From Candidatus Omnitrophota bacterium (GTDB lineage Bacteria; Omnitrophota; Gorgyraeia; JABMRN01; RBG-13-46-9), in NCBI GenBank assembly GCA_016782425.1, contig JADHYN010000001.1:655-64654 (forward strand): 64,000 nt of DNA, read 5' to 3'. The notes beneath the pieces were generated by a model that did no database searches, had not been told where the DNA came from, and was given only the letters and a program-made list of their open reading frames with translations. The translations under genes and the position numbers were made by a program. Positions 38,962 to 64,000 of the stretch are shown one piece after another; position 1 is the stretch's first letter; each line of letters opens with the position of its first letter.

Positions 38962-40377
38962 TTATTTTAGTTGCAATATATCCATACCTACCTGAAATTT
39001 CAGCTTCAGTTCATTAAGGGAACGTACCGTTCTTAAACTTTTGAAAAAATATGATGGTCTAATGTAGAATTCCTTGTAAGCAGTTTTTAATACTTTTTGT
39101 ATTTCATTCATTTGCACGGTTTCAATCCAGGATTTCGGTTTAAAACCGTCTACCGGATTGAGCGCAAATTCACGCCAGTGGTCATGAGGAAACCTGCCGG
39201 AAAACATGCCTTCTTCGTATAGAGGCGTACCGGGAAATGGAATAAGTATCGTAAAATGGCAATACTCAGGATTGAGTTGTTTCGCGAACTTTATCGTTTC
39301 CAGCATATCAGGCAACATTTCTCCAGGACATCCGAACATGAAGTATGCTGCGGTATGAATTCCTGTATTTTTAGACAATTTAAAAACGCTTCTGATCTTT
39401 TCTTTAGCAATGTTTTTCCCCAATCTTCTCCGTACTCTATCATTGCCAGATTCTACGCCATAGTTAATCATTTTGCAGCCAGCCGATTTAAGTGCTTTTA
39501 ACATCTCTAAATCTACACAGTCTATGCGCGCACGAATGCTCCAGATAACCTTAACGCCTCTTTGCTTTATTTCCCTGCAAACCTCGAAAACGCGCTTTCG
39601 GTCAACGTTAAACGTATCATCATAAAACATGATCTTTACAGCACCCGCTTTTATGCATTCCTCCATTTCATCCACTATGTCACCGGCGCTTCTGGATCTA
39701 AAATTTTTCCCAAGATGTGGCCTATCACAAAACGTACATTTATATGGGCATCCGCGCGAGCTAATCATTGTCGTAATCCCAGATCCAAGCACACTCGAGA
39801 AGTAACGTTTGTTTTTTATCATCGCCCTGTCCGGATGAGGAATATCATCTAACTTCTCAATTAAATTGGAGCTCGTGTTGCACACGACATCGCCTTTTTT
39901 AGTTTTGAAACAAAAACCTTTTATTTCTTTCAGGCTATCTTCGTCATTCCATAAGTTTAAAAGCTTCGCGATTGTATACTCCCCCTCGCCCAAGACCACA
40001 TAGTCAACACAGTTAAAGCCTATAGTCTCTTTAGGATAAAGATGGACATGAGGACCGCCGAAAATTACTTTTATTAGAGGGTTTATTTTTTTTGTAAGGC
40101 GAGCCGTGCGCAAGCAATCTATCAACGAATGAGTCATAGCAGTAATGCCTACGGCATCGGGTTTGCTGCGTTTTATACGCTCTTGGATTTGCCCATAATT
40201 CAATCTCTCGGCAACACAATCAACGAACTCCACATCCCAATCAGTCCACCGTTTTACGCTGGCAGCGATATAAAGCAAGCCTAAGGGTGGGACAATTCCT
40301 GTTCCGCGTTCCAGCACATCAGGTAATTTTGTATCGATAACATTTTCTTCTGAAGGGTATAATAAAAGAAGTTTCAT
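38962..40377 (-). CDS. B12-binding domain radical SAM protein
   Basis: SRGCPYKCTFCDR is a CxxxCxxC motif. This is the fourth paralogue. Confidence 0.85.
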   Translation of the reverse strand: MKLLLLYPSEENVIDTKLPDVLERGTGIVPPLGLLYIAASVKRWTDWDVEFVDCVAERLNYGQIQERIKRSKPDAVGITAMTHSLIDCLRTARLTKKINPLIKVIFGGPHVHLYPKETIGFNCVDYVVLGEGEYTIAKLLNLWNDEDSLKEIKGFCFKTKKGDVVCNTSSNLIEKLDDIPHPDRAMIKNKRYFSSVLGSGITTMISSRGCPYKCTFCDRPHLGKNFRSRSAGDIVDEMEECIKAGAVKIMFYDDTFNVDRKRVFEVCREIKQRGVKVIWSIRARIDCVDLEMLKALKSAGCKMINYGVESGNDRVRRRLGKNIAKEKIRSVFKLSKNTGIHTAAYFMFGCPGEMLPDMLETIKFAKQLNPEYCHFTILIPFPGTPLYEEGMFSGRFPHDHWREFALNPVDGFKPKSWIETVQMNEIQKVLKTAYKEFYIRPSYFFKSLRTVRSLNELKLKFQVGMDILQLK

Positions 40378-50864: not shown

Positions 50865-51521
50865 TTAGTGACAGGTTGGGCAGTGAGGGTGGGAGCTTTC
50901 TTTGACGAAAAGAAGAGGAAAAACGATATCGCTTACACAGCATGGCACCCAGACAGCTATAAAGAGGAAAACAAATACGCCTGCGTAGGAAATCCACGTA
51001 AGCTTCTCGCCTATTGCCATCAGGATATGAAACAAAGACGCCCAGGTACTTAAAAGTACGTGTCCGGCGTGAGGAAATTTTGTCCTGGGCCTGAAATAGG
51101 CTATCGCTATCCCTATTATAGCAAGGGGGTTTACGAGCCACCATTTCTCAATAAAACCTATATGCATGTGTCTGTGTGGCATATTAAGAAGCGTTTCCCC
51201 CAGGTAAGGAATAAGGGAATCGCTTAAAGTCGCTATCCCGATAGCGCCGACATAGCCTATGACTAAGAGCGCCCAAATATTACATTTACTTTTAAGACCG
51301 CCGCATTTGTGAATATTATACATCGACGCCGTAACAAGCGCACTTAATAGAACGTGCAGGGGGTGAAACACATAAAACATATCATATGAGGTTCTTTCCG
51401 GCAGGTTCTTACAAAAAAACATAAGCGCTATGCCTGTCAGCGCCCCGAAGATAGTGAAGGGTGCGTGGTGCTTGAGTTCTGTTAATATTTTTTTAAGCAT
51501 ACTTTGTTTCTTTGAATTCAC
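50865..51521 (-). CDS. integral membrane protein with His/Cys-rich motifs (HRHMH, HAGH, C-terminal HPHCPTCH); function unknown, possibly metal-related
   Basis: It is 218 aa with about 5-6 TM helices. The metal-ligand-like clusters and its position next to nikR suggest a metal role. Confidence 0.35.
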   Translation of the reverse strand: MNSKKQSMLKKILTELKHHAPFTIFGALTGIALMFFCKNLPERTSYDMFYVFHPLHVLLSALVTASMYNIHKCGGLKSKCNIWALLVIGYVGAIGIATLSDSLIPYLGETLLNMPHRHMHIGFIEKWWLVNPLAIIGIAIAYFRPRTKFPHAGHVLLSTWASLFHILMAIGEKLTWISYAGVFVFLFIAVWVPCCVSDIVFPLLFVKESSHPHCPTCH

Positions 51522-51585: not shown

Positions 51586-52185
51586 TTAATTAGCGTAACT
51601 CCATCGCATTTTGATATCCAGGATAGGAGTACCATTAACTGCATCAAGCCCTTCAACGAAAAGAACCGCCCCTTTTACCTCCGCCAGCCTGACGTCTTGT
51701 ATGCCAATTCTTGACAGTCTGTAAGGCGTGCGTGAAGCGAATACCCCCACTTCTTTTCCGTCTAAACCTCTTTTAAAGATTGATGCCACGGAATTTGCCT
51801 CGTGTAAATAGTAAACAATCGTAATGTATTCTTCTTCTTCTAATTTATATAAGAAAGGTTTTTGTGATGCAAATAGCTTTATGCGCGATGTTCCGTCCTT
51901 GCCACGGGTATCAAAACCTTTACCGGCACGCTTTAGTTTATTATAAACAATGCCTATGGGATAAATTTTAAACGGTTTTGCCTTGCTGTATAAACAGGCG
52001 GGACAAACCGGTTTGCCGTCAACAACAACATTATTGACGGGCGCCATTTTCCTGTTGCACCTAGAACACCTGCTATTTTTCATTGTTTTCTTCCTGAAAT
52101 CACCACGAATCCCCCTTCGCCGAAGCCTCTTTTCGGTTTTTCTACTGAATTGATTTTTCCCGGCAGCTCGAAAATAGTCTGCCAA
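51586..52185 (-). CDS. TsaA/YaeB-like (TrmO-family) SAM-binding beta-barrel domain protein with N-terminal Cys4 zinc ribbon
   Basis: The C-terminal SRTPYRLSRIGIQDVRL...GLDAVNGTPILDIK matches the TsaA-like UPF0066 signature. The N-terminus is CSRCNRK...CPAC. The start may be the ATG at 52086 (MKNSRCSRC), which avoids overlap. Confidence 0.5.
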   Translation of the reverse strand: MADYFRAAGKNQFSRKTEKRLRRRGIRGDFRKKTMKNSRCSRCNRKMAPVNNVVVDGKPVCPACLYSKAKPFKIYPIGIVYNKLKRAGKGFDTRGKDGTSRIKLFASQKPFLYKLEEEEYITIVYYLHEANSVASIFKRGLDGKEVGVFASRTPYRLSRIGIQDVRLAEVKGAVLFVEGLDAVNGTPILDIKMRWSYAN

Positions 52186-52700
52186 TAAGAGATCCGGGAA
52201 AAACGGATTTTTGTCAACATCTCTGTTATTTCTTTAATGCCAAAAAAGTTTGCTTTTTTATAAAAAACGCTTTTTTTTATCCGGTAAAATTTACCTAAAA
52301 AACTATTCTTATCTATAATCCCTATAATAATCTTACCGTTTTTCCTTAGCACTCTTTTTGCCTCTCGCAACACTTGCTCGGGATTTTTAACAAAGCAAAG
52401 GGTAATAATAATTGTAACAAAATCAAATTCGGAATTTTTAAATGGTACTTTTTCTCCAAGGCCTGATTTTATCCTGATCTCTCTTTTTCCGGCTATCCCA
52501 AGCATTTTTTTCGAAGGATCTATTCCATATTTTGTACCAAGCAAAACAGCAAATCTTCCTGTACCCACGCCAATTTCAATTCCTTTTCCCATTCTCGGGA
52601 CTGCTTTTTTTACCGCTTTGAGCTCCGAAAGATATGCAAATTTATTCCTATCGTACCAGGCGTCGTATTTCTTGTAATATTTATTAAATATATTACTCAT
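52080..52700 (-). CDS. class I SAM-dependent methyltransferase
   Basis: IEIGVGTGRFAVLL is motif I, and FDFVTIIITLCFV is post-II. Confidence 0.7.
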   Translation of the reverse strand: MSNIFNKYYKKYDAWYDRNKFAYLSELKAVKKAVPRMGKGIEIGVGTGRFAVLLGTKYGIDPSKKMLGIAGKREIRIKSGLGEKVPFKNSEFDFVTIIITLCFVKNPEQVLREAKRVLRKNGKIIIGIIDKNSFLGKFYRIKKSVFYKKANFFGIKEITEMLTKIRFSRISYWQTIFELPGKINSVEKPKRGFGEGGFVVISGRKQ

Positions 52701-53014
52701 AAATTCGAATCTCCTAACCAGCCATCGTAAAATCTCTTCAAATGTTTATAGAATTCCCTATCCATGATGTTTCTTTTTACATCTTTCTCTTTAAAGGAAT
52801 ATTTATAACCGGCACAATAACTTATTAAAATATCGTTTGCACGGCCTATTTTTTTAAACATTTCCTCGCACTTTTTCTTCTTTTTATCTTTACATTTGTC
52901 AGGATGATATTTATACGCCAGAACACGATAGGCCTTCTTTATTTCTTCCAGGGTCGCATCTTCTTCTAATCCCAGGAGTTGTCTTGCTTCATCAATTCGT
53001 TTAAAATCCGACAT
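52697..53014 (-). CDS. J-domain (DnaJ-like) protein
   Basis: YRVLAYKYHPDK contains the HPD tripeptide in J-domain context. Confidence 0.7.
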   Translation of the reverse strand: MSDFKRIDEARQLLGLEEDATLEEIKKAYRVLAYKYHPDKCKDKKKKKCEEMFKKIGRANDILISYCAGYKYSFKEKDVKRNIMDREFYKHLKRFYDGWLGDSNL

Positions 53015-53030
53015 TTTAATAATTTTCCCT

Positions 53031-53243
53031 TTAAAAACCCGTAGGGCATGTTCCTGTAGGGCAACTTGACCCAGAGGAACCGGATTTACCGCCTGAATTC
53101 CCTACACTAAATAAACTTAATATTTTATCTACGTTTCTGCTATTGCATTTTTTGCATTTAAGCTCTGCTTTTTCAGAAGTCACCCCTATTAATAAATCAA
53201 ACTTTTCATTACAATCTTTGCATACATAAGTATAAATAGGCAT
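53031..53243 (-). CDS. FmdB-family zinc-ribbon protein
   Basis: MPIYTYVCKDCNEKFDLL...CKKCNS is the CxxC...CxxC FmdB signature, with a Gly/Ser-rich tail. Confidence 0.7.
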   Translation of the reverse strand: MPIYTYVCKDCNEKFDLLIGVTSEKAELKCKKCNSRNVDKILSLFSVGNSGGKSGSSGSSCPTGTCPTGF

Positions 53244-53286
53244 TATTTTCCTCTATTGAATTTTTTAGTCTATAACCACAAACCAG

Positions 53287-53604
53287 CTAAATATGAGAAT
53301 CAACCTTGGAGGCAAGTTCCGATTCGGGGACTACCCCGACAACCGTATCAACGATCTTACCACCTTTAAAAATAGCTAAAGTAGGTATGCTCATAATGCC
53401 ATATTCAGATGATGTTTTTGGGGCTTCATCAACGTTTAGTTTGCATACTTTTAGTTTGTCTTTATACTTTTTAGCTATAGCCTCGACTGTCGGAGCAACC
53501 ATGCGACAGGGCATGCACCACTCAGCCCAAAAATCTACCAAAACCGGCAAATCTGAGTTTAATACAACCTCATTAAAATTCGCATCATTTGTATTTATCT
53601 CCAT
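53287..53604 (-). CDS. thioredoxin
   Basis: The active site is WAEWCMPCRMVAP. I place the start at the ATG at 53604 (MEINT), which has an AGGAGA RBS. Confidence 0.85.
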   Translation of the reverse strand: MEINTNDANFNEVVLNSDLPVLVDFWAEWCMPCRMVAPTVEAIAKKYKDKLKVCKLNVDEAPKTSSEYGIMSIPTLAIFKGGKIVDTVVGVVPESELASKVDSHI

Positions 53605-53677
53605 TTCTCCGTTCTCCTTTCTCAAAAAATTTCATTTAATAATATACTTCTAAACCTATTCAAAGATGCTATTCTCT

Positions 53678-54955
53678 CTACTTAACTTGCGACTCTTCAA
53701 TTGAATGTGTTGGAGCAGGAACTTTTTCAAGTTGCCCGTTTCGATATTTATTCACGGTTTCAGCTACAGTTAAATCCTCTGCAATTTTGTATATATCTAC
53801 AAAGTTTTCCTTAAGCATATAAAATGATAATTCTCCGATTTTAGCGGTAAACAGCATATCCAGCTTATATTTTATTACCGCTTTAATAACTTTAATGCCT
53901 ATGTGTTTTTTCTCATTAAGAAATTCGTTGTAATAAAAATCCTCTATTTCTGCATCTTTATCGGTTAATCTTAAGATAATATAATACGGAGCTCGTCCAA
54001 AATGGGCGTGAACCTTTGAATCCAAACCGTTCATATCCTTTACCGGAATAATCACCGATTCAACATTTCGTTTTGCAGGTTCAAGATGTATAAATACGGA
54101 TTCAATATCCTCATAGCTTTTGGTTATCAAATCTTCTGTTTTATCCGCAAGCTCATGCGCGCGGTATAATGGAAGTGTAGGCGAAGTCTCGATTTTGCAT
54201 TCTACCATCTTGAACGGCCCTGATTGCCGAATTTTGACCTCACTTGTTCCTTTAACCCCGTATATTTCATTTATCTTTTTTTCAATCGCGAATTGCAATT
54301 CGGGGCCTAGATTAGCGTCCATTAACGCCAATAAAGACATCCATACGTTTTCAATGCCTAATTTGAAAATCAAAAGCGAAATTAAAACTATAATAACTCC
54401 TTCTATATGGGGAATTCTTAAAAAAGCCAACCATATCCCTGCCAAAACAACCATTGAAGTAATAATATCCAGAAATGATTCCCGGGCATTAGCAATAAGG
54501 GATTGAGAGTTACTTTCTCGGCCTGCTGCTTGTTCTTTTCTGGCTATAAAAAAAGCCGCTATAGCTGATATTCCACTCACAACGAGAGGCAAAGCAGGGA
54601 ATTCTTCAACTTGGGTTATGTGGAAAAGCTTATAATATCCTTCTTTTAACATCCCTATGCCAGCCCATATTATGAATATTCCAATTAAAAAACTAACCAG
54701 AGTTTCTGCTTTATATAACCCATAAGGAAATCTGGCGCTTTTTTTCTTTCCCGCTAACCAAAGACCAAAACCGGAAGCAAAAATTGCCAAAAGATCTGCG
54801 GCACTGTGAAACGCATCAGCCAATAATATTTTTGAATTAAATAGGTACCCTACGGTGCCTTTGGCAATTGCTAGAAACAAAGTAAAAAAGGCAGCTATAA
54901 ACGCTACTTTTTGGCCCCTTTTTAATTTCTCCATCCTACCTTTGGCAATCCCCAT
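53678..54955 (-). CDS. cation diffusion facilitator (CDF) transporter fused to a C-terminal NifX/NifB-like (dinitrogenase FeMo-cofactor-binding) domain
   Basis: The N-terminal ~300 aa have six TM helices with CDF signatures (LLADAFHSAADLL; H/D metal sites). The C-terminal VIIPVKDMNGLDSKVHAHFGRAPYYIIL matches the conserved HFGxAP start of the NifX/NafY/NifB-C domain. Confidence 0.65.
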   Translation of the reverse strand: MGIAKGRMEKLKRGQKVAFIAAFFTLFLAIAKGTVGYLFNSKILLADAFHSAADLLAIFASGFGLWLAGKKKSARFPYGLYKAETLVSFLIGIFIIWAGIGMLKEGYYKLFHITQVEEFPALPLVVSGISAIAAFFIARKEQAAGRESNSQSLIANARESFLDIITSMVVLAGIWLAFLRIPHIEGVIIVLISLLIFKLGIENVWMSLLALMDANLGPELQFAIEKKINEIYGVKGTSEVKIRQSGPFKMVECKIETSPTLPLYRAHELADKTEDLITKSYEDIESVFIHLEPAKRNVESVIIPVKDMNGLDSKVHAHFGRAPYYIILRLTDKDAEIEDFYYNEFLNEKKHIGIKVIKAVIKYKLDMLFTAKIGELSFYMLKENFVDIYKIAEDLTVAETVNKYRNGQLEKVPAPTHSIEESQVK

Positions 54956-54978
54956 TGTTCTTTCCTTTAACTTTCAGT

Positions 54979-55212
54979 TTATTCCTGAAAAAACTGCCGG
55001 GTCATAAAGGCACCGCAATTAGGGCATCTTGTCTGAAAGCAAGGCAAGCCTCGTCTATGAGGAACAACTCTTTCGCAATTGGGACAAATGCAGGTCTCTA
55101 GAGGTCCAACCGGGCCTCGAGGCCCAAACCATCCACGTCCTCTACTCCCTCCAAAACCTCTGCCTCGTCCATCGCCTCCTCTGCCTCTGCCCTTTCCAAA
55201 TCCAAATGGCAT
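54979..55212 (-). CDS. DUF5320-like Gly/Arg-rich small protein, Cys-containing variant (CxCPxC ... CPxCG)
   Basis: MPFGFGKGRGRGGDGRGRGFGGSRGRGWFGPRGP... is followed by CICPNCERV...CPNCGAFM. It is a paralogue of 62572..62805. Confidence 0.5.
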   Translation of the reverse strand: MPFGFGKGRGRGGDGRGRGFGGSRGRGWFGPRGPVGPLETCICPNCERVVPHRRGLPCFQTRCPNCGAFMTRQFFQE

Positions 55213-55227
55213 TTCGATACTCCTTTT

Positions 55228-55941
55228 CTAGACTTTTATTTCTGCCCCTGCTTTAATTGGTAGAAAATCTTTTTTATACTTAAGTTTAAAAATTTCTTCC
55301 GCTCTTGGGCCCGAACAATGAGTGGCTCCGACTTTTTTTACCCCTATTTTCTTGAACTCATCGGCAATAATTTCAATGAGCATTTTGTCCTTGTCCATAA
55401 GATGAAAACCGCCTAGAACTGCGTAAATATCTTCTTTTGGGAAATTTTTCTTTACAGTATTTAACATTTTAATTATGCCGGGGTGAGCGCAACCGGTAAT
55501 AACAGATATACCCTTGTTGGTCTTAACAACCAACGCTTGTTCAGGCATATATTCACCTTTATATTCACCGGTAATTTCACCTGTAACAAAAATGTTTTTT
55601 GAAGTTTCGGTAATATTCTTCGTTCCTTTAAGGTTTCCGTTTAGCTTTTTGGCTTTATCCTTGAATTCGGCGCTGAAATTAGGGCATGCGTAAATCGTAA
55701 GGCCTTTTTTCCTCTTCAACAACTCCCACAGGCCACCCTGGTGATCCCAGTGGTCATGCGAAATTACCACAGCTTTTATCTTGTCGATATTTACATTTAA
55801 AATTTTCATGTTTTCTGTAAGCCAGGCGCCGTTTTCTCCCGTATCGAAAAGCACCTTCTCCTCGACCAAAAAAGAGACCCCCCAACCGGTACGCAGAGTT
55901 TTATTTTTTGCTTCCTTGTCAAAAAGCACTTCTATTCGCAT
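55228..55941 (-). CDS. MBL-fold metallo-hydrolase
   Basis: VVISHDHWDHQGG is the HxHxDH motif. A downstream GCAHPG His ligand is present. Confidence 0.75.
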   Translation of the reverse strand: MRIEVLFDKEAKNKTLRTGWGVSFLVEEKVLFDTGENGAWLTENMKILNVNIDKIKAVVISHDHWDHQGGLWELLKRKKGLTIYACPNFSAEFKDKAKKLNGNLKGTKNITETSKNIFVTGEITGEYKGEYMPEQALVVKTNKGISVITGCAHPGIIKMLNTVKKNFPKEDIYAVLGGFHLMDKDKMLIEIIADEFKKIGVKKVGATHCSGPRAEEIFKLKYKKDFLPIKAGAEIKV

Positions 55942-55945
55942 AATT

Positions 55946-56827
55946 TTATGGCCTTTTGCATAATATTATATCGCCAAGTTCGCATTTTACTTCACGAGCA
56001 ACTACCGGACACTTTGCCATGAAAAGAAAAAATATGTTCTTCTTTCTTCCGGAAAGGGCCTCGAAATTCCCCTGTCCCTTACTTATAACCATATCTGCAT
56101 TTTTATATATCTTCAGGAATTTAGCGGAACAAAGCGAAAGAACCGTTCCGGGGACGTCAAGGCCGCTTGAAATTACTTCTGTTACTTTGTCTAAACCGCA
56201 GTATACGGCATCGGCCATTATGGCGTCATTAATGATAGGTTTTTCTTTAATCGCGTAAAAAATTTTCTTGTGCGGGTATATTCTAAGTATTTCCTCTATA
56301 AGGATCCTGTCGAAAACTATCTCACCAGCGTTATCGCCCAAGTATAAAATCTTACCGGATTTTGCAAGAGCCAGCTTAAAAGCAGCGTAATTAAAAAGGC
56401 GGTTCGACTCATTTTTAATCGCCCTATTTTCCAGATTAAGTATTTTTTTTAGTTCACTCGTAACATCAAGGAAATTTTTTACCCCGTAGTCAATTATGTT
56501 ACCCGCTATAGCAAGTTCCACCGCGGTAAATAACGCGTCTTTCGAACGCCTTACTTTGTTCTTGAGCTTCCCATAAAGTGAAAGTGCCTGGCGATTGCTT
56601 TTTTCTTTTATTTTTTTATATGGGTCTTTCTTGCCGGTTTCCCTGTTTACAGTGCCATAAATTATTCTGCCCATTTCGGGAGGCGATTTTTGGAGGGTAA
56701 GCTTTTCTATCGCGCCTGCTATTTTCTTTAAAATTCTGCGCTGCGTAAGTGAGCCCGCTCCGGCGAGCCGCGCGGCCTCAAGCGCCTGTTTAAAAAAACA
56801 TGGTATACATTCTAAATATGTCTTCAT
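55946..56827 (-). CDS. DUF89 family protein (ARMT1-like damage-control phosphatase fold)
   Basis: The N-terminal LECIPCFFKQALEA (CxPC motif) and the DNAGE metal-binding motif (YLGDNAGEIVFD) are diagnostic of DUF89. Confidence 0.7.
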   Translation of the reverse strand: MKTYLECIPCFFKQALEAARLAGAGSLTQRRILKKIAGAIEKLTLQKSPPEMGRIIYGTVNRETGKKDPYKKIKEKSNRQALSLYGKLKNKVRRSKDALFTAVELAIAGNIIDYGVKNFLDVTSELKKILNLENRAIKNESNRLFNYAAFKLALAKSGKILYLGDNAGEIVFDRILIEEILRIYPHKKIFYAIKEKPIINDAIMADAVYCGLDKVTEVISSGLDVPGTVLSLCSAKFLKIYKNADMVISKGQGNFEALSGRKKNIFFLFMAKCPVVAREVKCELGDIILCKRP

Positions 56828-56833
56828 TTACCA

Positions 56834-57610
56834 TCAAACCTTGCCTCTTCTTTTCAAGGTGTCTTCCGAGCTGATAGGATTAACTCTCTTTTTTTGTGCG
56901 TCATAAACCGAAACGGTATTCAATCCGGCAAAATGCGCTTTTATAATATTCATTTCCGGATTCGTTAACGGTTTTACCCTGCATGGCCTAAGAGGCGTGT
57001 TTAGCTGAACTTCATCGGGACTAATTTCTTTTGCAATCTTCGCAATCTCCTGCACATAGCTTTTATTTTGTTCTATGAACATAATCTGCAACGCCAATTT
57101 TCCTATATAGCAGCTTTTAAAGTCTTTTACTGCCTGAATAATATTTTCAATTTTTATAGTGCTTAACGGCTTATTTACTTGGTTAAAAACTTTTTGCATA
57201 GAACTATCTAATTTGGCAACGACAAAATCCGCACAAAAGAGGTCTTTTTGGACATCTTCTCGGTTCAAAAGCGAGGAATTAGTCAAAACTGCTATTTTCT
57301 CATTTCGTATTTTCTTTATCGCCCTTATCATATCGCCCAGGTTTTTCGCCAATGTCGGCTCACCGGTTCCGGAAAAAGTTATGTAATCGATTTTGAGATG
57401 TGGCAGGCTATCAAACTCTTCTATTACATCCTCAACCTTAACAAACGTCTTCCGTTTATCGGTTAATATCTTAGTCTTTCCGATCTGGCAATATACACAA
57501 TCGAATGTGCAAACCTTCTCACCCTTAGACAAAGGATCTATCCCCAGAGAACTGCCTAACCTCCAGGACGGTACAGGCCCATAAATATATTTATAGTTTT
57601 TTTGGCTCAT
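56834..57610 (-). CDS. radical SAM protein ([16 protein letters not shown]-terminal motif class)
   Basis: CTFDCVYCQ is the CxxxCxxC motif, and [10 protein letters not shown] is the SAM-binding GGEP-like motif. I place the start at the ATG at 57610. Confidence 0.75.
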
Positions 57611-58430
57611 CCAAAACACTCGCAATCTTCACCATAATTTCATTCATGATGTTCGCTGTTTGTGTCTGTCTTTTAAAATGAATAAATGGTTGCCCCGAAT
57701 CTCCAAACTTTACCATTTCAGGTTCAATAGGTATTCTTCCTAAGAACGGCACTTTTAAATCATGAGCCGATTTCTCGCCACCACCCATTCCGAATAAATC
57801 TATCTCTTTTTTGCAGTGCGGGCACAAGAAACCGCTCATATTCTCAATTATACCAATAACAGGCATTTTCAACTCTTTCGCGAATAAAACACTCTTTCTT
57901 GAATCCAAAATAGCCACATCCTGCGGCGTAGTGACCACTATCGCTCCATTTATGTCCGGAATAAGCTGGCATACGCTCAATGGTTCATCACCGGTTCCAG
58001 GAGGAGAATCCACTATTAAGTAATCAAGCTCCCCCCAGTTAACATCAGCCAAAAACTGTTTTATGGTTACCATTTTGAGGGGGCCGCGCCAAACAATAGG
58101 CTGATCTTGATTCTCAAATAACAAAGCAAGACTTACTGCTTTTAGGTTAGGCAAAACTTCCATGGGCTCAATTCCGGACTCAGAACCTATGAGCCTTTTG
58201 CCTTCAATCCCTAACATTTTGGCAATATTGGGCCCGTGAATATCGACATCCAGAATGCCCACCTTATTTCCTTTGACAGCCAGCCCATACGCTAAATTAA
58301 CGGCAACTGTGCTCTTGCCGACTCCGCCTTTTCCGCTTATTACAATAAGCTTATATTTTATTTTAAACATCCTCTCTTTGAGGCGGTTCTCTTGTTCGAT
58401 TCTTTCTTCGTCTTTTTTCTGCATCAGCAA
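57591..58430 (-). CDS. Mrp/NBP35/ApbC-family Fe-S cluster carrier ATPase
   Basis: The deviant Walker A is [11 protein letters not shown]. The [13 protein letters not shown]-terminal CxxC motif is typical of ApbC/Nbp35. Confidence 0.85.
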
Positions 58431-58448
58431 TCTTCTTATTAATTTTAT

Positions 58449-59363
58449 CTAGGGCTTATCAATTCCTGTTTGTAACTTTTCCCATGCCTCGTTTATTTCC
58501 TTTTTGGCCTTTCCGCCAGCGTATTCTGTTATTGTCTTCCCTTTAACCATCGCCTCTACCACAGATTTATCGAAAGGGATTTTGCCTACTAAACCGATAT
58601 TATTTACCTTTGAGTATTCCTCTATTTTTTGCGTCATATCCGTATTAAGGTCGTACTTATTTACGATTAATTTCGCTAAAATACCAAAATGTTTGGCTAC
58701 ACTTATAACCCTATCCGCATCATGAAGCCCTGAAAGCGTCGGCTCTGTAACAACAATAGCACAGTCTATGCCTGAAAGAGACGCTATGACAGGACACCCT
58801 ATCCCGGGCGCGCCGTCTATGATTACGAGATCCGCTTTTTTTGCTTCGGCCAGTTCCTTTGCCTTTTGCCTAACAAGGCTTACAAGCTTCCCGGAATTTT
58901 CCTCCGCTATGCCGAGCTTGGCATGTACCATAGGGCCAAAACGTGTATTAGAGATAAACCATTCGCCTGAAATATTTTCTTCCATTTTTATGGCGCCTAC
59001 GGGACAAGCAAAACTGCAAAAAGCGCATCCTTCGCAGGAAACTCGGTCTACGGTAAAATCCTCGCTTACCTCGTTAGAAATGTCATTTCTAACGGGGCTA
59101 ATAGCATTGAAACGGCAAATTTCTATACATTTGCCGCATTGAACACATTTATTTTTATCTATGAAAGCCGTTTTACCGCTTCGAAATTCATATCGTTCTT
59201 TTATGTTAGGCTGCAACAATAAATGTAGGTCCGCCGCGTCCACATCGCAATCAGCCATTACTTTGTTTTTCGCAAGGGCGGCAAACGCTCCCGTAATTAC
59301 GGTTTTCCCTGTTCCGCCTTTTCCGCTTATTATTACGATTTGCTTCACTATAACCTTTCTCAC
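58449..59363 (-). CDS. MinD/ParA-superfamily P-loop ATPase with inserted 2x[4Fe-4S] ferredoxin domain
   Basis: The Walker A is ISGKGGTGKT. The inserted ferredoxin motifs are CVQCGKCIEIC and CEGCAFCSFACP. Confidence 0.8.
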   Translation of the reverse strand: MRKVIVKQIVIISGKGGTGKTVITGAFAALAKNKVMADCDVDAADLHLLLQPNIKERYEFRSGKTAFIDKNKCVQCGKCIEICRFNAISPVRNDISNEVSEDFTVDRVSCEGCAFCSFACPVGAIKMEENISGEWFISNTRFGPMVHAKLGIAEENSGKLVSLVRQKAKELAEAKKADLVIIDGAPGIGCPVIASLSGIDCAIVVTEPTLSGLHDADRVISVAKHFGILAKLIVNKYDLNTDMTQKIEEYSKVNNIGLVGKIPFDKSVVEAMVKGKTITEYAGGKAKKEINEAWEKLQTGIDKP

Positions 59364-60712
59364 ATTTTGTCTGACGCGTTTTGAGCCGCCAGCACAACCG
59401 GATACATTGTCGGAGCAGACGTCAAATATGGATGGGTTGCCATTTGCAATGTCTCCAGTTCCGTTACAGAAACTCTCTGCTGAATTGCCATGCCGATAAT
59501 GTTAATTATCTCTCCGGCGGATATACCTCCGACAACCTGGCCGCCCATTAAAATACCGGATTGTCTGGAAAAAATAAGCTTTACTCTCACTTTATTCGCT
59601 CCGGGAAGGCTTCCGGGATGCTTATCTATACTTTCCGTATTTCCCGAAACAATCTCAAACCCTTCTTTTTTAGCGCTTGTTTCCGTAAGTCCCGCAGAAC
59701 CTAAAACCAGGCCATCCACATAAGTCGAGTAAATCGCGATCGTTCCTTTGTTTTCACGCACAACTTTTAGCCGATAGAGGTTGGCTCCGGCAATTCTCGC
59801 TTCAGCTGTAGCGGTAGAAGCGAGCATAACAGGCGTATCTCTTCTTGTATAAAAATCTCGTTTCCCGGCGCAATCACCTACCGCGAAAATATCAGGATCA
59901 GCGGTACGCATGTATTCATCTACCCATATACCCTTGCCTCTCCCTAAATCCAAGCCTGCCTCAGTTGCCAAAGTTGTGTTAGGAACGGATCCTATTCCTA
60001 AAATAACACTGTCTATTCTTAACTCTTTCCCGTTGTCAAACCGCACACCTTTTATCTTATCATCCCCCAAAAATTCAACCACCTTAGTGCTGGTTAAAAG
60101 GGTAACGCCCCCTGACTTTAGCCTTTCTTCAACCAACAAAGAAAACTCATCATCAAAAGAATTCGCGAGCAAACGGGGAAGAACTTCGGCTAAATATACA
60201 TTAATGTCATTTATTTTTGAGATCTCATCAGCAAACTCAACGCCTATAAATCCGCCGCCAAGAATCAATACATTTTTCGCTTTTTTAAGTTTAGTTATAA
60301 TTGCTTTAAGATAATTCATGTCCTTATATACGGGGTAGATTCCTTCTTTCTCAATCCCGGCTATAGAAGGCTTAATTGGCATAGATCCCGGGGCAAGGAC
60401 AAGTTTCTCATATTCATATTCTTCACCGCTTTTAGCAGTTATTTTTTTTGCGCTACGATCCATCTTTACCGCTTCGTCAATAATAACTTCTATGTTATTC
60501 TTTTTAAGAGCGTCAAGTCCCAGCTTATTGTCATCAGGATTTTTAAGACTCCAGAACATATAGGGAATCCCGCACGGAATACAACCGTTAACTACATTTT
60601 TCATAACCACAACGTCTTTATCCGGATAATACCTTTTTGCCGTAATCGCGCTTACGAGCCCGGCCGGTCCTCCTCCGATAATAAGAACACCCACTTTTTT
60701 AACCATAAACAC
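59360..60712 (-). CDS. FAD-dependent pyridine nucleotide-disulfide oxidoreductase (CoA-disulfide reductase/NADH oxidase-like)
   Basis: The N-terminal FAD site is VLIIGGGPAGLVSA. A Cys pair sits in NGCIPCGIPY, and the second Rossmann motif is VLILGGGFIGVEFA. Confidence 0.75.
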   Translation of the reverse strand: MFMVKKVGVLIIGGGPAGLVSAITAKRYYPDKDVVVMKNVVNGCIPCGIPYMFWSLKNPDDNKLGLDALKKNNIEVIIDEAVKMDRSAKKITAKSGEEYEYEKLVLAPGSMPIKPSIAGIEKEGIYPVYKDMNYLKAIITKLKKAKNVLILGGGFIGVEFADEISKINDINVYLAEVLPRLLANSFDDEFSLLVEERLKSGGVTLLTSTKVVEFLGDDKIKGVRFDNGKELRIDSVILGIGSVPNTTLATEAGLDLGRGKGIWVDEYMRTADPDIFAVGDCAGKRDFYTRRDTPVMLASTATAEARIAGANLYRLKVVRENKGTIAIYSTYVDGLVLGSAGLTETSAKKEGFEIVSGNTESIDKHPGSLPGANKVRVKLIFSRQSGILMGGQVVGGISAGEIINIIGMAIQQRVSVTELETLQMATHPYLTSAPTMYPVVLAAQNASDKM

Positions 60713-60719
60713 CTTTCTT

Positions 60720-61103
60720 TTATGAAGATTCCAGCATTACACAGAGTCCGTAAATCACATCAATATTATTATCACGGCAAAATTTTATTGCGGTTTCACT
60801 TTCGGCTCCCGGTTGAAGCCAGACTCTTTTAATGGATTTTTTCCGGCATTCCTTTACTATTGTTTCAGTAACAGAAGGCGGGGTAACCACATTAACGACA
60901 TCGATATTAAAAGGGATATCGCTTATGCTTTTATAGCATTTTATCCCATCGACATCGCTAAGACGGGGGTTAACAGGAAAGGCCTCATACCCTTTTTTTA
61001 TTAAAGTTTTCAAAATCTTATACGCGTATTTAGCTTCATTTCTAAACGAGCCAACAATCGCAAACCTCTTTTGTTTTAAAAAATCTTTAATTAGGCTTTC
61101 CAT
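60720..61103 (-). CDS. CoA-binding domain protein (YccU/YneT-like)
   Basis: FAIVGSFRNEAKYAYKILKTL...GYEAFPVNP matches the CoA_binding_2 fold signature. I place the start at the ATG at 61103. Confidence 0.65.
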   Translation of the reverse strand: MESLIKDFLKQKRFAIVGSFRNEAKYAYKILKTLIKKGYEAFPVNPRLSDVDGIKCYKSISDIPFNIDVVNVVTPPSVTETIVKECRKKSIKRVWLQPGAESETAIKFCRDNNIDVIYGLCVMLESS

Positions 61104-61944
61104 CTTTAATTTTGTTAAAAAGCTCTTCAAAATCTTTTTTGTATTCGGGAAACGTTTTCACAATCGACTCACCTTTAGAATAGGCAACTGCTATCTCTTT
61201 CTTAAAAGGTATACGCATGAGAATAGGAATATTCTGTTCCTTGCAATATTTGTCTGTTTTCTCATCGCCTAAATCAGAACGGTTAATCACGACTCCGAAC
61301 CGAATCTTGAGTTTCCTCAAGACTTCTACCGCAAGGGTTAAATCATTTAACCCAAAGGGCGTCGGCTCGGTAACAAGCACACAAAAATCGCTTTTCTTTA
61401 TAGTCTCAACTACGGGGCATGACGTTCCGGGAGGGGCATCGATAATAACAGTGCGTGTTGGATTGAGATGTTTTTTGATTTCCCTTATAACGGGAGGCGC
61501 CATTGCTTCGCCTATATTCAATCGCCCGTGTATAAATTGTATAGACTCAACCGTGCCAATTTCAATTTCACCGATTTCTTTATTCACTTCCTTTATGGCG
61601 CTTTCAGGACAAAAATAAGAACAACTTCCGCAGCCATGGCAAAGGTTCGAAAAAACTAGAATGTTTCCCTTTTTGCCATCAGTTCCTCCTATTACGGCAA
61701 TGACATTGTAAGCGCATACCTCACGGCACCTGCCGCAATAGGTACACTTTTCCTCATCTATTTCCGGAATGGGAATATAAACTTTTTTTGTTTCTTTTAT
61801 CTTGGGTTTTAAAAAAATGTGGGCGTTTGGTTCTTCCGCGTCGCAATCCAAAAACTGCACTTCCTTATTTATAGAAAGCGCTAAATTGACCGCTATCGTA
61901 GTCTTACCTGTTCCGCCTTTCCCGCTTGCAACTGAAATAACCAT
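61087..61944 (-). CDS. MinD/ParA-superfamily P-loop ATPase with inserted 2x[4Fe-4S] ferredoxin domain (second copy)
   Basis: The Walker A is ASGKGGTGKTT. The ferredoxin motifs are CTYCGRCREVC and CHGCGSCSYFCP. Confidence 0.8.
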   Translation of the reverse strand: MVISVASGKGGTGKTTIAVNLALSINKEVQFLDCDAEEPNAHIFLKPKIKETKKVYIPIPEIDEEKCTYCGRCREVCAYNVIAVIGGTDGKKGNILVFSNLCHGCGSCSYFCPESAIKEVNKEIGEIEIGTVESIQFIHGRLNIGEAMAPPVIREIKKHLNPTRTVIIDAPPGTSCPVVETIKKSDFCVLVTEPTPFGLNDLTLAVEVLRKLKIRFGVVINRSDLGDEKTDKYCKEQNIPILMRIPFKKEIAVAYSKGESIVKTFPEYKKDFEELFNKIKDGKPN

Positions 61945-61948
61945 AATT

Positions 61949-62674
61949 TTATATAATCGGTTTATACGCTATAAACATTTCCTGAAATTTACTATTATAT
62001 TTTTCTGTTTTAAAGCCCTTTTCACATAAATATCTATGTATATCTTGCAGATTAAATTTAGCTGTTCTGTGACTCCTGCCCTCTTGGGCATGGATCTTAT
62101 TGAGTACCTCAAATCCATCCTTAGTGAAATCGCTTAGAACAATCTTTCCTTCAAAAGTAAGAACCCTTATAAACTCATCCATTACCTTAAAAGGGTTCTC
62201 GAAATGATGAACTGTATTTATTGATAAAATAATATCGAAGCTTTTATCATCAAAGCTTAAATGCTCGGCATTTTCAATCTTAAAATCAACGGTCTTTTCT
62301 AATCCGGCATATTTTAGATTTAGTTTTGCGATATTCTGTTCTTCTCTAGAGATGTCAACACTTGTAAACTGATATCCTTCTTTGGCAAGAATCAACGTAA
62401 AATGGCCTTTACCGGTCCCAACTTCAAGGATATCATCGAATAACGGCTCGGCCTTATCAAGAACGAATTCTCGTTCTTTGTCTATGTCGAATCCGTGACT
62501 TTGGTACAGCTTCTTACGCTCTAAATAACGTTTGTGGTTTTCTAAAACTTTTCTTTCCAAAATTAATCTTTCTAAGCCTTCGTCATTTTCGTCCCGCATT
62601 TCGGGCAATTTACCGAATAACAAGGCGCTCCCTGCTGATGCTGTAGTCTCTCGCCACAATTCGTACAAACACAA
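61949..62674 (-). CDS. class I SAM-dependent methyltransferase
   Basis: ILEVGTGKGHFTLIL is motif I. The N-terminus of the ORF-track model overlaps the small gene 62572..62805, so the true start is probably an internal ATG, for example 62599. Confidence 0.65.
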   Translation of the reverse strand: MCLYELWRETTASAGSALLFGKLPEMRDENDEGLERLILERKVLENHKRYLERKKLYQSHGFDIDKEREFVLDKAEPLFDDILEVGTGKGHFTLILAKEGYQFTSVDISREEQNIAKLNLKYAGLEKTVDFKIENAEHLSFDDKSFDIILSINTVHHFENPFKVMDEFIRVLTFEGKIVLSDFTKDGFEVLNKIHAQEGRSHRTAKFNLQDIHRYLCEKGFKTEKYNSKFQEMFIAYKPII

Positions 62675-62805
62675 TATCCGCCGGGTCCTGATCCCGGACG
62701 GTTTCCGCCCATGCGGCCTCTGCCGCCACCTCTACCCATGCCTCTACCTGTTCCCGGTCCTCCTCCTAAAGGTCCTGTTCCGTCTCCACCTGGCATTTTA
62801 CTCAC
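62572..62805 (-). CDS. DUF5320-like Gly/Arg-rich small protein, Cys-containing variant (CVCTNC ... CPKCG)
   Basis: MSKMPGGDGTGPLGGGPGTGRGMGRGGGRGRMGG... is followed by CVCTNCGER...CPKCGTKM. It is a paralogue of 54979..55212. Confidence 0.5.
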   Translation of the reverse strand: MSKMPGGDGTGPLGGGPGTGRGMGRGGGRGRMGGNRPGSGPGGYCVCTNCGERLQHQQGAPCYSVNCPKCGTKMTKA

Positions 62806-62820
62806 CTCCTATTTTGTTTC

Positions 62821-63195
62821 CTATTTTCTTGGCGGCATGCCAAATTTTGAATTCACGCTCGGCCCGCCTGTAGATTTAAGCCCACCTTTTTTGTATTTTT
62901 CAACAGCTTCTTTAACCGTACCGGAAACTCCGGTAATTACCTCTACACCGGCCGCTTGTAAAGTCTGAAACGCGTTAGGCCCGACATTTCCCGTAAGCAC
63001 GGTTTTCGCTTTTTTATCAGCAATAAGCTGCCCGGACTGGACTCCGGCTCCACCCATTGAGTCAATATTAGGATTTTTTACCACCTCGAGTTTCATAGTG
63101 TCGGTATCTACGACAATAAAATATTGACATCTACCAAAACGCGGATCAACTTTAGAATCCAGATTGTCACCTTCCGAAGTAATGCAAATTTTCAT
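62821..63195 (-). CDS. NifX/NifB-like dinitrogenase FeMo-cofactor biosynthesis domain protein
   Basis: [30 protein letters not shown]... matches the conserved start of the Nitro_FeMo-Co domain, with a glycine-rich tail. Confidence 0.8.
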
Positions 63196-63210
63196 ATCCT
63201 CCCCTTTCTT

Positions 63211-63615
63211 TTAATCATCGCAATCCTTTTCATTAGGATGGTCACACTCGGACTTCTCTATGCCATAGCCTTTTCCTGCGCCGGGCTTGCAAAGGCTTTC
63301 CCCACCCTCAAGTGTTCCTTTCAGAATTTTTTTTAAAACTTCGTCGATTTTTCCGCTTATGCCGACAATCGCTTTAATGTTAAGCTCTTCAAAAAATTGA
63401 GTTGCCCGCATTCCCATCCCCCCGGCTATTATAACATTTACTCCCTTTTCGTGCAAAAATTGGGGTATTGCACCCGGCTGATGGCCCGGATTTGGTACAA
63501 CCTCTTTTTTTATCAGCTTATTTTCACTAATATCTAAAATGGTGAACTCCGGACATCGCCCGAAGTGGGCAGATACATTGTCCCCGTCAGTTGATATAGC
63601 TATTTTCATAAGCAC
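63211..63615 (-). CDS. NifX/NifB-like dinitrogenase FeMo-cofactor biosynthesis domain protein with Cys/His-rich C-terminus
   Basis: KIAISTDGDNVSAHFGRCPEFTILD is the family signature. The C-terminus is ...GESLCKPGAGKGYGIEKSECDHPNEKDCDD. Confidence 0.8.
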   Translation of the reverse strand: MLMKIAISTDGDNVSAHFGRCPEFTILDISENKLIKKEVVPNPGHQPGAIPQFLHEKGVNVIIAGGMGMRATQFFEELNIKAIVGISGKIDEVLKKILKGTLEGGESLCKPGAGKGYGIEKSECDHPNEKDCDD

Positions 63616-63633
63616 TCCTAATATTACGTTCAG

Positions 63634-63700
63634 AAGTCAGAAATCAGAGGTCAGAGGTCAGATTTTTAGACTCGTCTGACTTCTGTATTCTGACTTCTGT
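63634..63700. repeat. compound direct/inverted short repeats (TCAGA x5; TCTGACTTCTGTAT x2; arms mutually complementary)
   Basis: gttcagaagtcagaaatcagaggtcagaggtcagatttttagactcgtctgacttctgtattctgacttctgtattctgaac forms an extended imperfect hairpin between two minus-strand genes. Confidence 0.4.
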
Positions 63701-63709
63701 ATTCTGAAC

Positions 63710-64000
63710 TTATTTCTTCTCACTTTTCGCCGCAGACTCAAGCTCTTTCACCCGAGCGTTAACAGCGTCAAGTTCTTCTTTAAGAAGCGAAGCCTCTTCC
63801 TTTAACGCCTTTGCCTCGTCTTTTGACGTTGCCTCCGGGTATGCATAACCATACTGCGGGTAACCGTAAGCATAAGGATAGGCTGCTCTAGCCCGGCCCC
63901 GGCCTCTGCCAAAGCCTCTTCCAAATCCTCTGCCACCGCCACGGCCATATCCTAATCCTCTTCCCGGGATAGGGTTTGCGTAACCCGGCACCGGGTAACC
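63710..64000 (-). CDS. DUF5320 family protein (Gly/Arg-rich N-terminus, YPYAYGYP aromatic stretch, C-terminal coiled coil); 5' end probably beyond window
   Basis: ...GYANPIPGRGLGYGRGGGRGFGRGFGRGRGRARAAYPYAYGYPQYGYAYPEATSKDEAKALKEEASLLKEELDAVNARVKELESA is the canonical DUF5320 layout. The frame is open to the window edge, and the ORF-track start is a GTG. Confidence 0.55.
   Translation of the reverse strand, partial: GYPVPGYANPIPGRGLGYGRGGGRGFGRGFGRGRGRARAAYPYAYGYPQYGYAYPEATSKDEAKALKEEASLLKEELDAVNARVKELESAAKSEKK

Follow-up and report, generated by a model that had tools for sequence, protein, structure and literature searches.

A run of some 20 genes from an uncultured Omnitrophota bacterium as a probable form of the orange-protein (ORP) gene cluster

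The stretch of DNA considered here (hereafter the window) comprises 64,000 nucleotides from the metagenome-derived genome of an uncultured bacterium, Candidatus Omnitrophota bacterium (GenBank assembly GCA_016782425.1, contig JADHYN010000001.1, positions 655 to 64,654), and ends in a run of about 20 closely packed minus-strand genes (51586-64000). This block is probably the Omnitrophota form of the orange-protein (ORP) gene cluster, in which iron-sulfur (Fe-S) or metal-sulfide species would be trafficked by a pair of ATPase-ferredoxins. Specifically, its core is predicted to consist of a pair of MinD-type ATPases with ferredoxin inserts (Orp3/Orp4 type), an Orp8-type homologue of the orange protein and an MrpORP that is split in two. 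An original prediction, which covered 53678-64000, had taken the assemblage for an undescribed system with no assigned function. That part has to be withdrawn: the core is that of the Desulfovibrio ORP cluster, and the NCBIfam equivalog for MrpORP matches two of the genes. The broader proposal, of one conserved and co-transcribed-looking module tied to the handling of Fe-S or metal cofactors, is borne out by co-localisation across many phyla, and the physiological role was rightly regarded as unresolved, since papers of 2021 still call it 'unclear' (PMC8359166).

In Desulfovibrio vulgaris Hildenborough, the ORP cluster (DVU2103-DVU2109) is made up of orp3-orp4-orp5, orp7-orp8-orp9 and orpR. 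The ATPases Orp3 and Orp4 each contain two [4Fe-4S] motifs, the NifX fold is found in Orp5 and Orp8, and Orp9, or MrpORP, joins an Mrp to a NifX-fold domain in one protein, a fusion which arose several times independently (PMC6345978). Descriptions of the complex date from 2011 onwards and include biochemical work on MrpORP and on OrpR (PMC6345978, PMC8359166). Paired MinD-ferredoxin ATPases, an orange protein, a second NifX-fold protein and an Mrp of the MrpORP type are common to this cluster and to the block, both of which belong to anaerobic lineages. Small Gly/Arg-rich open reading frames (ORFs) are also shared, as they lie beside (upstream of) the ORP gene in Desulfovibrio sp. X2, in the position that corresponds to Orp7 (DVU2107), and where the same core stands behind PAS/sigma-54 activators. 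The two systems differ in that (i) MrpORP is fused in Desulfovibrio and split into two non-adjacent genes here, (ii) sigma-54 promoters and the PAS-AAA+ activator OrpR contrast with a Fur-family gene with palindromic boxes and (iii) two divergent three-gene operons contrast with one co-directional block of about 20 genes. The satellites of the block are a DUF5320 protein and two small proteins, here called sCys, and, in addition to what the Desulfovibrio cluster encodes, a radical SAM (S-adenosylmethionine) enzyme, a DUF89 protein, an MBL-fold hydrolase, two methyltransferases, a J-domain protein and an FmdB zinc ribbon. Equally additional are its rare or local add-ons, namely a CoADR-like reductase with a CoA-binding protein, a CDF exporter with a NifX-fold domain (CDF-NifX) and a thioredoxin. 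Because the gene content of the type cluster is present, two of its features are lacking and many more genes are added, the block is regarded as a variant of ORP and not as an undescribed system.

The assignment of the core follows from individual genes (Table 1). The first free NifX-fold protein (NifX1) matches the C-terminal part of the MrpORP model NF041136 (model positions 265-365, 105.8 bits). The motifs published for MrpORP's 'Di-Nase' domain, HFGHC, PxPGxxP and CDH (PMC6345978), are kept across NifX1 and 36 orthologues (37 sequences), and NifX1 is the predicted equivalent of this C-terminal domain. The Mrp protein scores 371 bits against the same model (positions 3-253) and 226 bits against ApbC, and is the predicted equivalent of the P-loop half of MrpORP. 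The two are separate genes about 5 kb apart, neither of which reaches the NF041136 cutoff of 450 bits on its own (371 and 106); together they form a putative split MrpORP. The second free protein (NifX2) has as its best solved relative the ORP of D. gigas (2WFB, E 1.4e-23, residues 2-113 of 124 aligned) and ends in a tail of 21 residues (G5, R+K 4), whereas the tail of NifX1 is acidic. As had been predicted, there are two free NifX-domain proteins and one fused to a CDF exporter, Pfam Nitro_FeMo-Co being found in all three. The exporter is a proper CDF member, with 187.5 bits against TIGR01297 (cutoff 82.35) and the ZT_dimer dimerisation domain. Its fusion was rejected as a novelty: about 100 representatives of full-length CDF-NifX fusions exist at 50% clustering, making this an already populated family, and it rarely adjoins the ORP core.

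The two ATPase paralogues are neighbours in 73 of 80 related loci (defined below) and directly adjacent in most of them, whereas in the window the CoA-binding and reductase genes are inserted between them. Across both paralogues and the 80 loci, the deviant Walker A motif and the eight ferredoxin cysteines are invariant in 150 of 150 sequences, and the deviant Walker A motif implies an ATP-sandwich dimer. Equally invariant (150/150) is a ninth cysteine, C190 in the numbering of the protein encoded at 58449-59363, which lies in the motif DxxPGxxCPV, 7 residues after the Walker B Asp. The cysteine of a DCD motif, C39, is 99% conserved in one paralogue and 62% in the other. Neither C190 nor C39 is mentioned in those parts of the ORP papers that were available to us. 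The ATPases share the P-loop fold class and the deviant Walker A with NifH/BchL and with SIMIBI ATPases (Mrp/NBP35, HypB, CooC), and the spacing of C190 from Walker B is that of Asp125 to the ligand Cys132 in NifH, by ungapped counting on the validated A. vinelandii protein. In the profile alignment with A. vinelandii NifH, the MinD-ferredoxin proteins could be matched over the first 50 residues and over a C-terminal segment only, switch II being left uncovered, and therefore the likeness of C190 to Cys132 is deduced by counting without gaps from the Walker B Asp onwards. In NifH-type proteins, moreover, clusters are held only at the dimer interface, whereas those of the block ATPases would be held in an inserted ferredoxin domain, and no catalytic partner such as NifDK or BchNB is encoded nearby.

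The related loci were collected by scanning one genome per species with an alignment of the ATPases, which gave 80 loci, bacterial and archaeal, that span more than 15 phyla; their ORFs were labelled with the window proteins, and unlabelled ORFs were then clustered. As controls, 20 unrelated window proteins were used (a histidine kinase, glycosyltransferases, B12-radical SAM enzymes and a methyltransferase among them), and these match 0-3 of the 80 loci (0.3 on average). Where a locus extends for 5 kb or more in both directions, as 40 of them do, it contains the second ATPase paralogue in 97% of cases, the ORP-like protein in 95%, NifX1 in 75% and Mrp in 57%. The families of the block occur in 4 to 73 of the 80 loci (thioredoxin and CDF-NifX in 3 each), gaps inside the loci are often -4 to 60 nucleotides (nt), and recurrent neighbours include IscU-like scaffolds (NifU_N), Mrp, Fur, CGGC and DUF364 proteins. 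Since this recurrence is far above that of the 20 controls, the core and most satellites are taken to be truly associated. The membership proposed originally therefore stands for these genes and falls for thioredoxin and CDF-NifX, which do not exceed the controls and would seem to be neighbours peculiar to this lineage; for the reductase it is weak (6/80), and the CoADR-like/CoA-binding pair is a rare accessory. Profile searches detect both the NifX domain and the ferredoxin inserts, and the co-localisation is real across many phyla, which disposes of the doubts that had been attached to the prediction, namely that the domains might not be found or that the genes might never be neighbours elsewhere. 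Two further Omnitrophota genomes (L088 and L089; L numbers denote loci) keep the frame Fur-DUF5320-NifX-NifX. In these sister clusters, an encapsulated-ferritin-like protein was also observed after the NifX genes (L088 6122-6373), and a DUF169 protein in the place of Mrp (L088 10884-11489; L089 10899-11501).

The gene order can be followed beyond the window in L001, the public-assembly record of the same contig, which also supplies the 5′ part of the DUF5320 gene. The tight packing extends below 53678 to 51586, taking in the FmdB zinc ribbon, the J-domain protein, a methyltransferase and a TrmO-like protein, and past base 64000 to the start of DUF5320 and a Fur-family gene directly upstream of it (L001 4680-5290). 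Gaps of 4-20 nt or overlaps had been predicted; they are indeed mostly tight (-44 to +23 nt), with exceptions of 94 nt (with a hairpin inside), 52 nt and 43 nt. The location of all genes on one strand, which had also been put forward, is true and yet without weight, since minus-strand coding holds for all 64 kb of the window: apart from ORFs nested in a longer minus-strand ORF, all those of at least 120 residues lie on that strand. GC skew is below zero in 31 of 32 2-kb bins of the window (cumulative -3.74). In its layout, the block resembles a single transcription unit with some 20 genes that would start at the Fur gene. The best NCBIfam models for this Fur are of the iron type; the protein has an unusual Arg/Gly/His/Trp-rich N-terminal extension. 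Its gene has a promoter of consensus form (TTGACA-17-TATAAT) followed by the palindrome TGATAATGGAAACCATTATCA, and a 7-1-7 palindrome, TGAAAATGATTTTCA, lies between Fur and DUF5320. A palindrome similar to the upstream one recurs at the corresponding position in five other Fur-linked loci (attributed to Omnitrophota, Atribacteria and Aminicenantes), one similar to the downstream one in 3 of those five, and both look like candidate sites of the Fur-box kind.

No Fur-box pattern was found inside the window. Matches to the sigma-54 motif number 20 in the window against 25 expected and are thus not enriched, and no gene for an enhancer-binding protein is present among the Pfam-annotated genes of the block or in L001. 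Between the DUF5320 stop and the NifX1 start, a hairpin (63629-63706) is predicted at -38.3 kcal/mol (z = -5.8 against shuffles); it is built of repeated TCTGACTTCTG units with inverted-repeat arms of 25 nt, has neither a U tract nor an Rfam match, and may be an element of transcript processing or stability. A promoter-like site (51552-51524, 11/12 match) follows the TrmO-like gene, ahead of the unit of a 218-residue membrane protein; in the promoter and terminator scans, matches were not above those of shuffles. Rfam and tRNA scans of 48-64 kb gave no match.

From the Desulfovibrio proteins it is known that MrpORP holds a bridging [4Fe-4S] cluster and transfers a cluster to Orp3/Orp4 in vitro, that its NifX-fold domain binds an Fe-S cluster and that ORP binds a Mo-Cu sulfide cluster non-covalently (PMC6345978). 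By analogy with these in vitro data, the Mrp of the block would load [4Fe-4S] onto both ATPase-ferredoxins. The two paralogues would form an ATP-sandwich heterodimer in which the nucleotide state is coupled to the movement of electrons or clusters, by way of the ferredoxin clusters and the invariant switch-II cysteine, and IscU-like scaffolds, where present, would feed this heterodimer alongside Mrp. Its target would be an anionic species (Fe-S or metal-sulfide) that the NifX-fold proteins would hold non-covalently and that cationic Gly/Arg-rich partners would stabilise. The product would be passed to apo-proteins, or be buffered or stored, and Fur would tie expression to the iron status. The block shares with the NifB/NifX/NafY maturation of nitrogenase its NifX fold, its radical SAM enzyme and the NifH fold class of its ATPases, and related loci share NifU_N as well, but nifHDK and nifEN are absent from the annotated part of the window (12.7 kb to its end), and the radical SAM enzyme is small and unfused to a NifX domain.

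Several points weigh against this trafficking ORP cluster. The Omnitrophota proteins are known here from sequence alone; in Desulfovibrio, the role of ORP was itself called 'unclear' in 2021, and a role in cell division was once proposed (PMC8359166). Both the sigma-54/OrpR control and the Mrp-NifX fusion of the type system are absent here. The sister clusters of L088 and L089 are without Mrp, and Mrp is therefore not obligatory. The profile alignment leaves C190 unconfirmed as a ligand of the NifH type, the candidate Fur sites lie outside the window, and the putative single operon is deduced only from spacing and from the absence of intergenic terminator-like sites. Finally, the recurrent client enzyme that the original prediction hoped to find nearby did not emerge from the 80 loci, nor did a specific client in the window. 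The large polysaccharide biosynthesis region at 12694-45484 (glycosyltransferases, Wzy, Wzz, a flippase and epimerases), in which four B12-binding radical SAM genes were noted (20316-21719, 21706-23124, 25169-26644 and 38962-40377), was considered as such a client and rejected.

What the NifX-fold proteins would carry may be approached through the small Gly/Arg-rich proteins. Three of these had been called DUF5320-like, which is correct for one (63710-63991, 54.7 bits), while the other two belong to the sCys family. The full DUF5320 gene encodes 120 residues and starts at the would-be position 64072, 72 nt past base 64000 (L001 5292-5654). The protein is composed of an N-terminal MPRGDGTGP...GPMTGRG, a middle rich in Gly, Arg, Tyr and Pro and a C-terminal coiled coil; residues 27-80 contain G16, R+K 8, D+E 1, 11 aromatic residues and P7. 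No relevant paper was found in a literature search for DUF5320. With it, sCys shares only the N-terminal MPxGDGTGP/Gly-Arg part, and ends in an invariant CxCPxC-H-C-CPxC module (C45, C47, C50, H56, C62, C67 and C70 in the alignment); sCys is thus a family apart from DUF5320, as judged by alignment. The second copy matches no family above cutoff, DUF5320 included, and has weak sub-threshold zinc-ribbon matches; it is uncalled in the gene calls of L001 and the source assembly, yet a strong ribosome-binding site, AAGGAG, precedes its ATG by 7 nt. Homologues of sCys fall into more than 3,400 clusters, none of them characterised. In an AF2 model of copy 1, residues 1-37 are disordered and residues 40-74 folded (pLDDT about 80-87).

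No fewer than five families in the clusters carry Gly/Arg segments that are cationic and poor in acidic residues and that often contain Trp, Phe or Tyr: the middle of DUF5320, the N-terminal half of sCys, the tails of some NifX-fold variants, an N-terminal extension of 8 of 11 cluster-linked Fur proteins and a C-terminal tail of 11 of 16 cluster-linked DUF134 proteins. Gly/Arg-rich DUF134 tails, often after a CxxC...CxxC ribbon, were noted in L012, L020, L021, L022, L026-L028, L034, L046, L048, L068 and L085. The best parallel is IssA of P. furiosus, a NifX-fold protein (IPR003731) of the MTH1175/ORP type with a cationic, disordered tail rich in Gly, Arg, aromatic residues and Pro, which has been proposed to wrap anionic thioferrate (PMC5524996). 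The composition of the DUF5320 middle is like that of this tail (PMC5524996). Because the cationic segments of the clusters and the IssA tail are alike in composition, a shared polyanionic ligand is supported. The tail of IssA (about 70 residues) is, however, covalently joined to its NifX fold, whereas the block has separate DUF5320 and sCys proteins and regulator extensions, and thioferrate, the polymeric Fe-S anion bound by the nanoparticle-forming IssA, is here a candidate ligand. An ATPase-ferredoxin partner is not mentioned in the part of the IssA paper that was available.

A more far-reaching proposal, which we regard as speculative and improbable as a whole, is that ORP-type clusters are a general store and mobiliser of a thioferrate-like Fe-S polyanion in anaerobes, a split relative of IssA in bacteria and archaea. 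In such a store, the NifX-fold proteins may nucleate the Fe-S species, DUF5320 and sCys may wrap it, the MinD-ferredoxin heterodimer may release or rebuild clusters with ATP and low-potential electrons, its invariant switch-II cysteine serving as a NifH-like site, Mrp and IscU-like carriers may distribute them, and the Fur and DUF134 regulators may sense the same polyanion through their cationic tails.

The same segments could be seen differently. An RGG sequence with a zinc ribbon is a classic RNA-binding combination, and the disordered Gly/Arg-rich half of sCys, followed by its small zinc-ribbon-like fold, conforms to this; similar tails are found on the DNA-binding Fur and DUF134 regulators, and a strong hairpin follows the DUF5320 gene. 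Accordingly, DUF5320, sCys and the regulator tails might bind nucleic acid and regulate the cluster post-transcriptionally or at the DNA level, instead of carrying a ligand. The seven invariant metal-type ligands of sCys are, however, more than a plain zinc ribbon needs, DUF5320 and sCys are encoded beside NifX-fold proteins in many phyla, and IssA is an example of such chemistry binding a polyanion of inorganic Fe-S (PMC5524996). Regulation of this kind is regarded as a fair but unlikely alternative.

The ATPase pair, for its part, invites comparison with proteins that position cell structures. The AF2 model of paralogue 2 (pLDDT 84) has MinD, FleN and FlhG as its nearest solved folds, followed by NifH-type Fe proteins and BchL, and the combination of MinD with a ferredoxin insert has no counterpart among solved structures. 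The invariant deviant Walker A is likewise typical of MinD/ParA, D. vulgaris orpR mutants are morphologically defective and MrpORP is found at the cell pole (PMC8359166, PMC6345978, PMC4672049). The pair might then position the septum or another cell structure in anaerobes, as was first proposed for the ORP complex of Desulfovibrio, with Fe-S clusters serving only as redox sensors. Yet the ATPases fall well short of the MinD equivalogs (63-65 bits against TIGR01968/TIGR01969, cutoffs about 202-213), the block has no minC or minE, and neither MinC, MinE, FtsZ nor ParB is among the families identified in the block or the 80 loci. Instead, those recurrent neighbours to which an identity could be given have to do with Fe-S or metals, as proteins or as regulators (NifU_N, Mrp, Fur, CGGC, DUF364), and the original authors call the role unclear (PMC8359166). 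A positioning function is therefore considered rather improbable.

With about as slender a prospect, the metal of the cluster might be not iron but molybdenum or tungsten (and copper), the NifX-fold proteins carrying thiomolybdate or thiotungstate clusters for cofactor supply or detoxification. NifX2 is homologous to ORP, which was isolated with an S2MoS2CuS2MoS2 cluster (PMC6345978), and a study of A. fulgidus suggested a link to molybdopterin enzymes (PMC3949148). The best models for the radical SAM enzyme, weak as they are, are MoaA and a tungsten-cofactor maturase, and DUF364/DUF4213 'heavy-metal chelation' proteins occur in 7 loci. Against this, genes of the mod, tup, moa and moe kinds are absent from the block (by Pfam) and from the called genes of L001, the best models of the regulator are iron-type Fur, and the commonest added partners are IscU-like scaffolds and Mrp.

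In Omnitrophota, the cluster lies between genes of hyp maturation and those of NikR and nickel uptake, and it might be a dedicated helper of a single client there, most plausibly a [NiFe]-hydrogenase. HypD and HypE are encoded just upstream in L001, and the next unit after the block in the window consists of the 218-residue membrane protein, then NikR, then an OprB porin; in L089, HypF-C-D-E stand upstream and NikR-OprB-CbiM/N/Q downstream, and in L088 NikR-OprB-CbiMNQO adjoin the cluster. But in the 80 loci, which come from other phyla, none of the recurrent neighbour families was identified as hyp or nik, gene order is unlike between L088 and L089, and the synteny may simply mirror an island of metal genes, so that we rate this as very unlikely. 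A chance juxtaposition of unrelated housekeeping genes, in a compact region where all real genes of the window lie closely spaced on one strand and where thioredoxin and CDF-NifX are no commoner near the core than controls, has next to no chance of being right, being refuted for the core and most satellites by their recurrence in the 80 loci against 0-3 for controls.

Pfam searches upheld the Fe-S and metal domain calls of the original prediction (three NifX domains, two MinD-ferredoxins, Mrp, radical SAM, DUF89, MBL, thioredoxin and the reductase), which had overlooked the first SAM methyltransferase and the CoA_binding_2 protein. The features are collected in Table 1.

Table 1. Features of the block and of its surroundings, in the direction of transcription, with the number of related loci (of 80) in which each family was found
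Feature	Position	Strand	Family matches and motifs	Loci (of 80)
Fur-family regulator	L001 4680-5290			11
DUF5320 gene, 3′ part	63710-64000	-	PF17253, E 2.4e-14, 54.7 bits (cutoff 27)	33
NifX-fold protein 1 (NifX1)	63211-63609	-	PF02579, E 1.4e-24; HFGRC, PGHQPGAIP, CDH	
NifX-fold protein 2 (NifX2), Orp8/ORP homologue, short cationic tail	62821-63195	-	PF02579, E 3.8e-26	
sCys copy 1, Gly/Arg-rich, Cys6His zinc-ribbon-like C-terminus	62572-62796	-	22.1 bits, below the DUF5320 cutoff	34 (family)
Class I SAM-dependent methyltransferase (methyltransferase 1)	61949-62623	-	Methyltransf_11, E 5.9e-22	8
MinD-type ATPase, 2x[4Fe-4S] ferredoxin insert, paralogue 1 (Orp3/Orp4 type)	61087-61944	-	CbiA/ParA and Fer4	
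Stand-alone CoA-binding protein	60720-61103	-	CoA_binding_2, E 1.4e-34	4
Pyridine-nucleotide disulfide oxidoreductase, CoADR/Nox group	59360-60706	-	Pyr_redox_2, E 6e-59; CIPCGIPY	6
MinD-type ATPase, 2x[4Fe-4S] ferredoxin insert, paralogue 2	58449-59363	-	CbiA/ParA and Fer4	
Mrp/NBP35 Fe-S carrier ATPase	57591-58424	-	PF10609 (NUBPL/Mrp ParA), E 1.5e-96; GKGGVGKS, CPHC	
Small radical SAM enzyme, uncharacterised subfamily	56834-57610	-	PF04055, E 2.6e-16; CxxxCxxC	17
DUF89/ARMT1-like metal-dependent phosphatase	55946-56827	-	PF01937, E 3e-70	14
MBL-fold hydrolase, TM1679/7DCK type	55228-55941	-	Lactamase_B; 7DCK, E 4e-35; 3H3E, E 3e-29	18
sCys copy 2, 77 residues	54979-55212	-	all six Cys and the His of the family	34 (family)
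CDF cation exporter with C-terminal NifX-fold domain (CDF-NifX)	53678-54955	-	Cation_efflux; ZT_dimer, E 1.2e-15; Nitro_FeMo-Co, E 3.5e-14	3
Thioredoxin	53287-53604	-	PF00085, E 1.5e-31	3
FmdB-family zinc ribbon, Cys-rich tail	53031-53243	-	Zn_ribbon_8, E 9e-13; TIGR02605	32
Stand-alone J-domain protein	52697-53014	-	DnaJ, E 1.6e-16	8
Second SAM methyltransferase (methyltransferase 2)	52080-52700	-	Methyltransf_11, E 2.6e-18	10
TrmO/YaeB-like protein, last gene before the promoter-like site	51586-52047	-	TrmO_N, E 2.2e-21	7
218-residue membrane protein	50865-51521		no Pfam family; C-terminal HPHCPTCH	4
NifU_N scaffold				26
DUF134 regulator				14
Sigma-54 activator				12

Some of the accessory genes deserve a closer look. 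The disulfide oxidoreductase scores well below the CoA-disulfide reductase equivalogs (229.7 bits against 458; 221.9 against 578.8) and can be assigned only to the wider CoADR/Nox group; it holds the same position in L088. In its CIPCGIPY, an extra Cys three residues before the expected active-site Cys gives a CxxC, the candidate active-site Cys having been read by eye. The CoA-binding gene is also present in L006 and L089. For the radical SAM enzyme, with its weak matches to MoaA and W-cofactor maturase models, a NifB-like reading is unsupported, as it has no solved relative at E <=0.01 and no NifX fusion. The pair of J-domain protein and methyltransferase 2 recurs in L006, L014, L016, L021, L024, L085, L088 and L089. 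Chaperone-assisted cluster transfer is the business of HscB/HscA, and a J-domain protein in the cluster, together with the reported co-elution of Orp3 with DnaK (PMC3125180), is a hint of such a transfer here. Conserved His residues are numerous in the 218-residue membrane protein, which may transport a metal; homologues (63-71% identity) adjoin the cluster in L006, L007, L008, L016 and L085.

Decades have passed since the orange protein became known, and its complex has been on record since 2011; relatives of the core are here placed in loci attributed to more than 15 phyla. Fe-S biogenesis in anaerobes is still poorly documented (PMC6345978). What this locus and its 80 relatives add to the six Desulfovibrio genes are the fixed satellite families, the range of regulator types (Fur, DUF134 and sigma-54 activators), a ninth invariant Cys in the ATPases and a cationic Gly/Arg motif repeated on at least five families. 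For the Omnitrophota block as a probable ORP cluster, and for its relatives elsewhere, these comparative results offer leads, open to testing, on the way in which Fe-S or metal-sulfide clusters are trafficked or stored in anaerobes.

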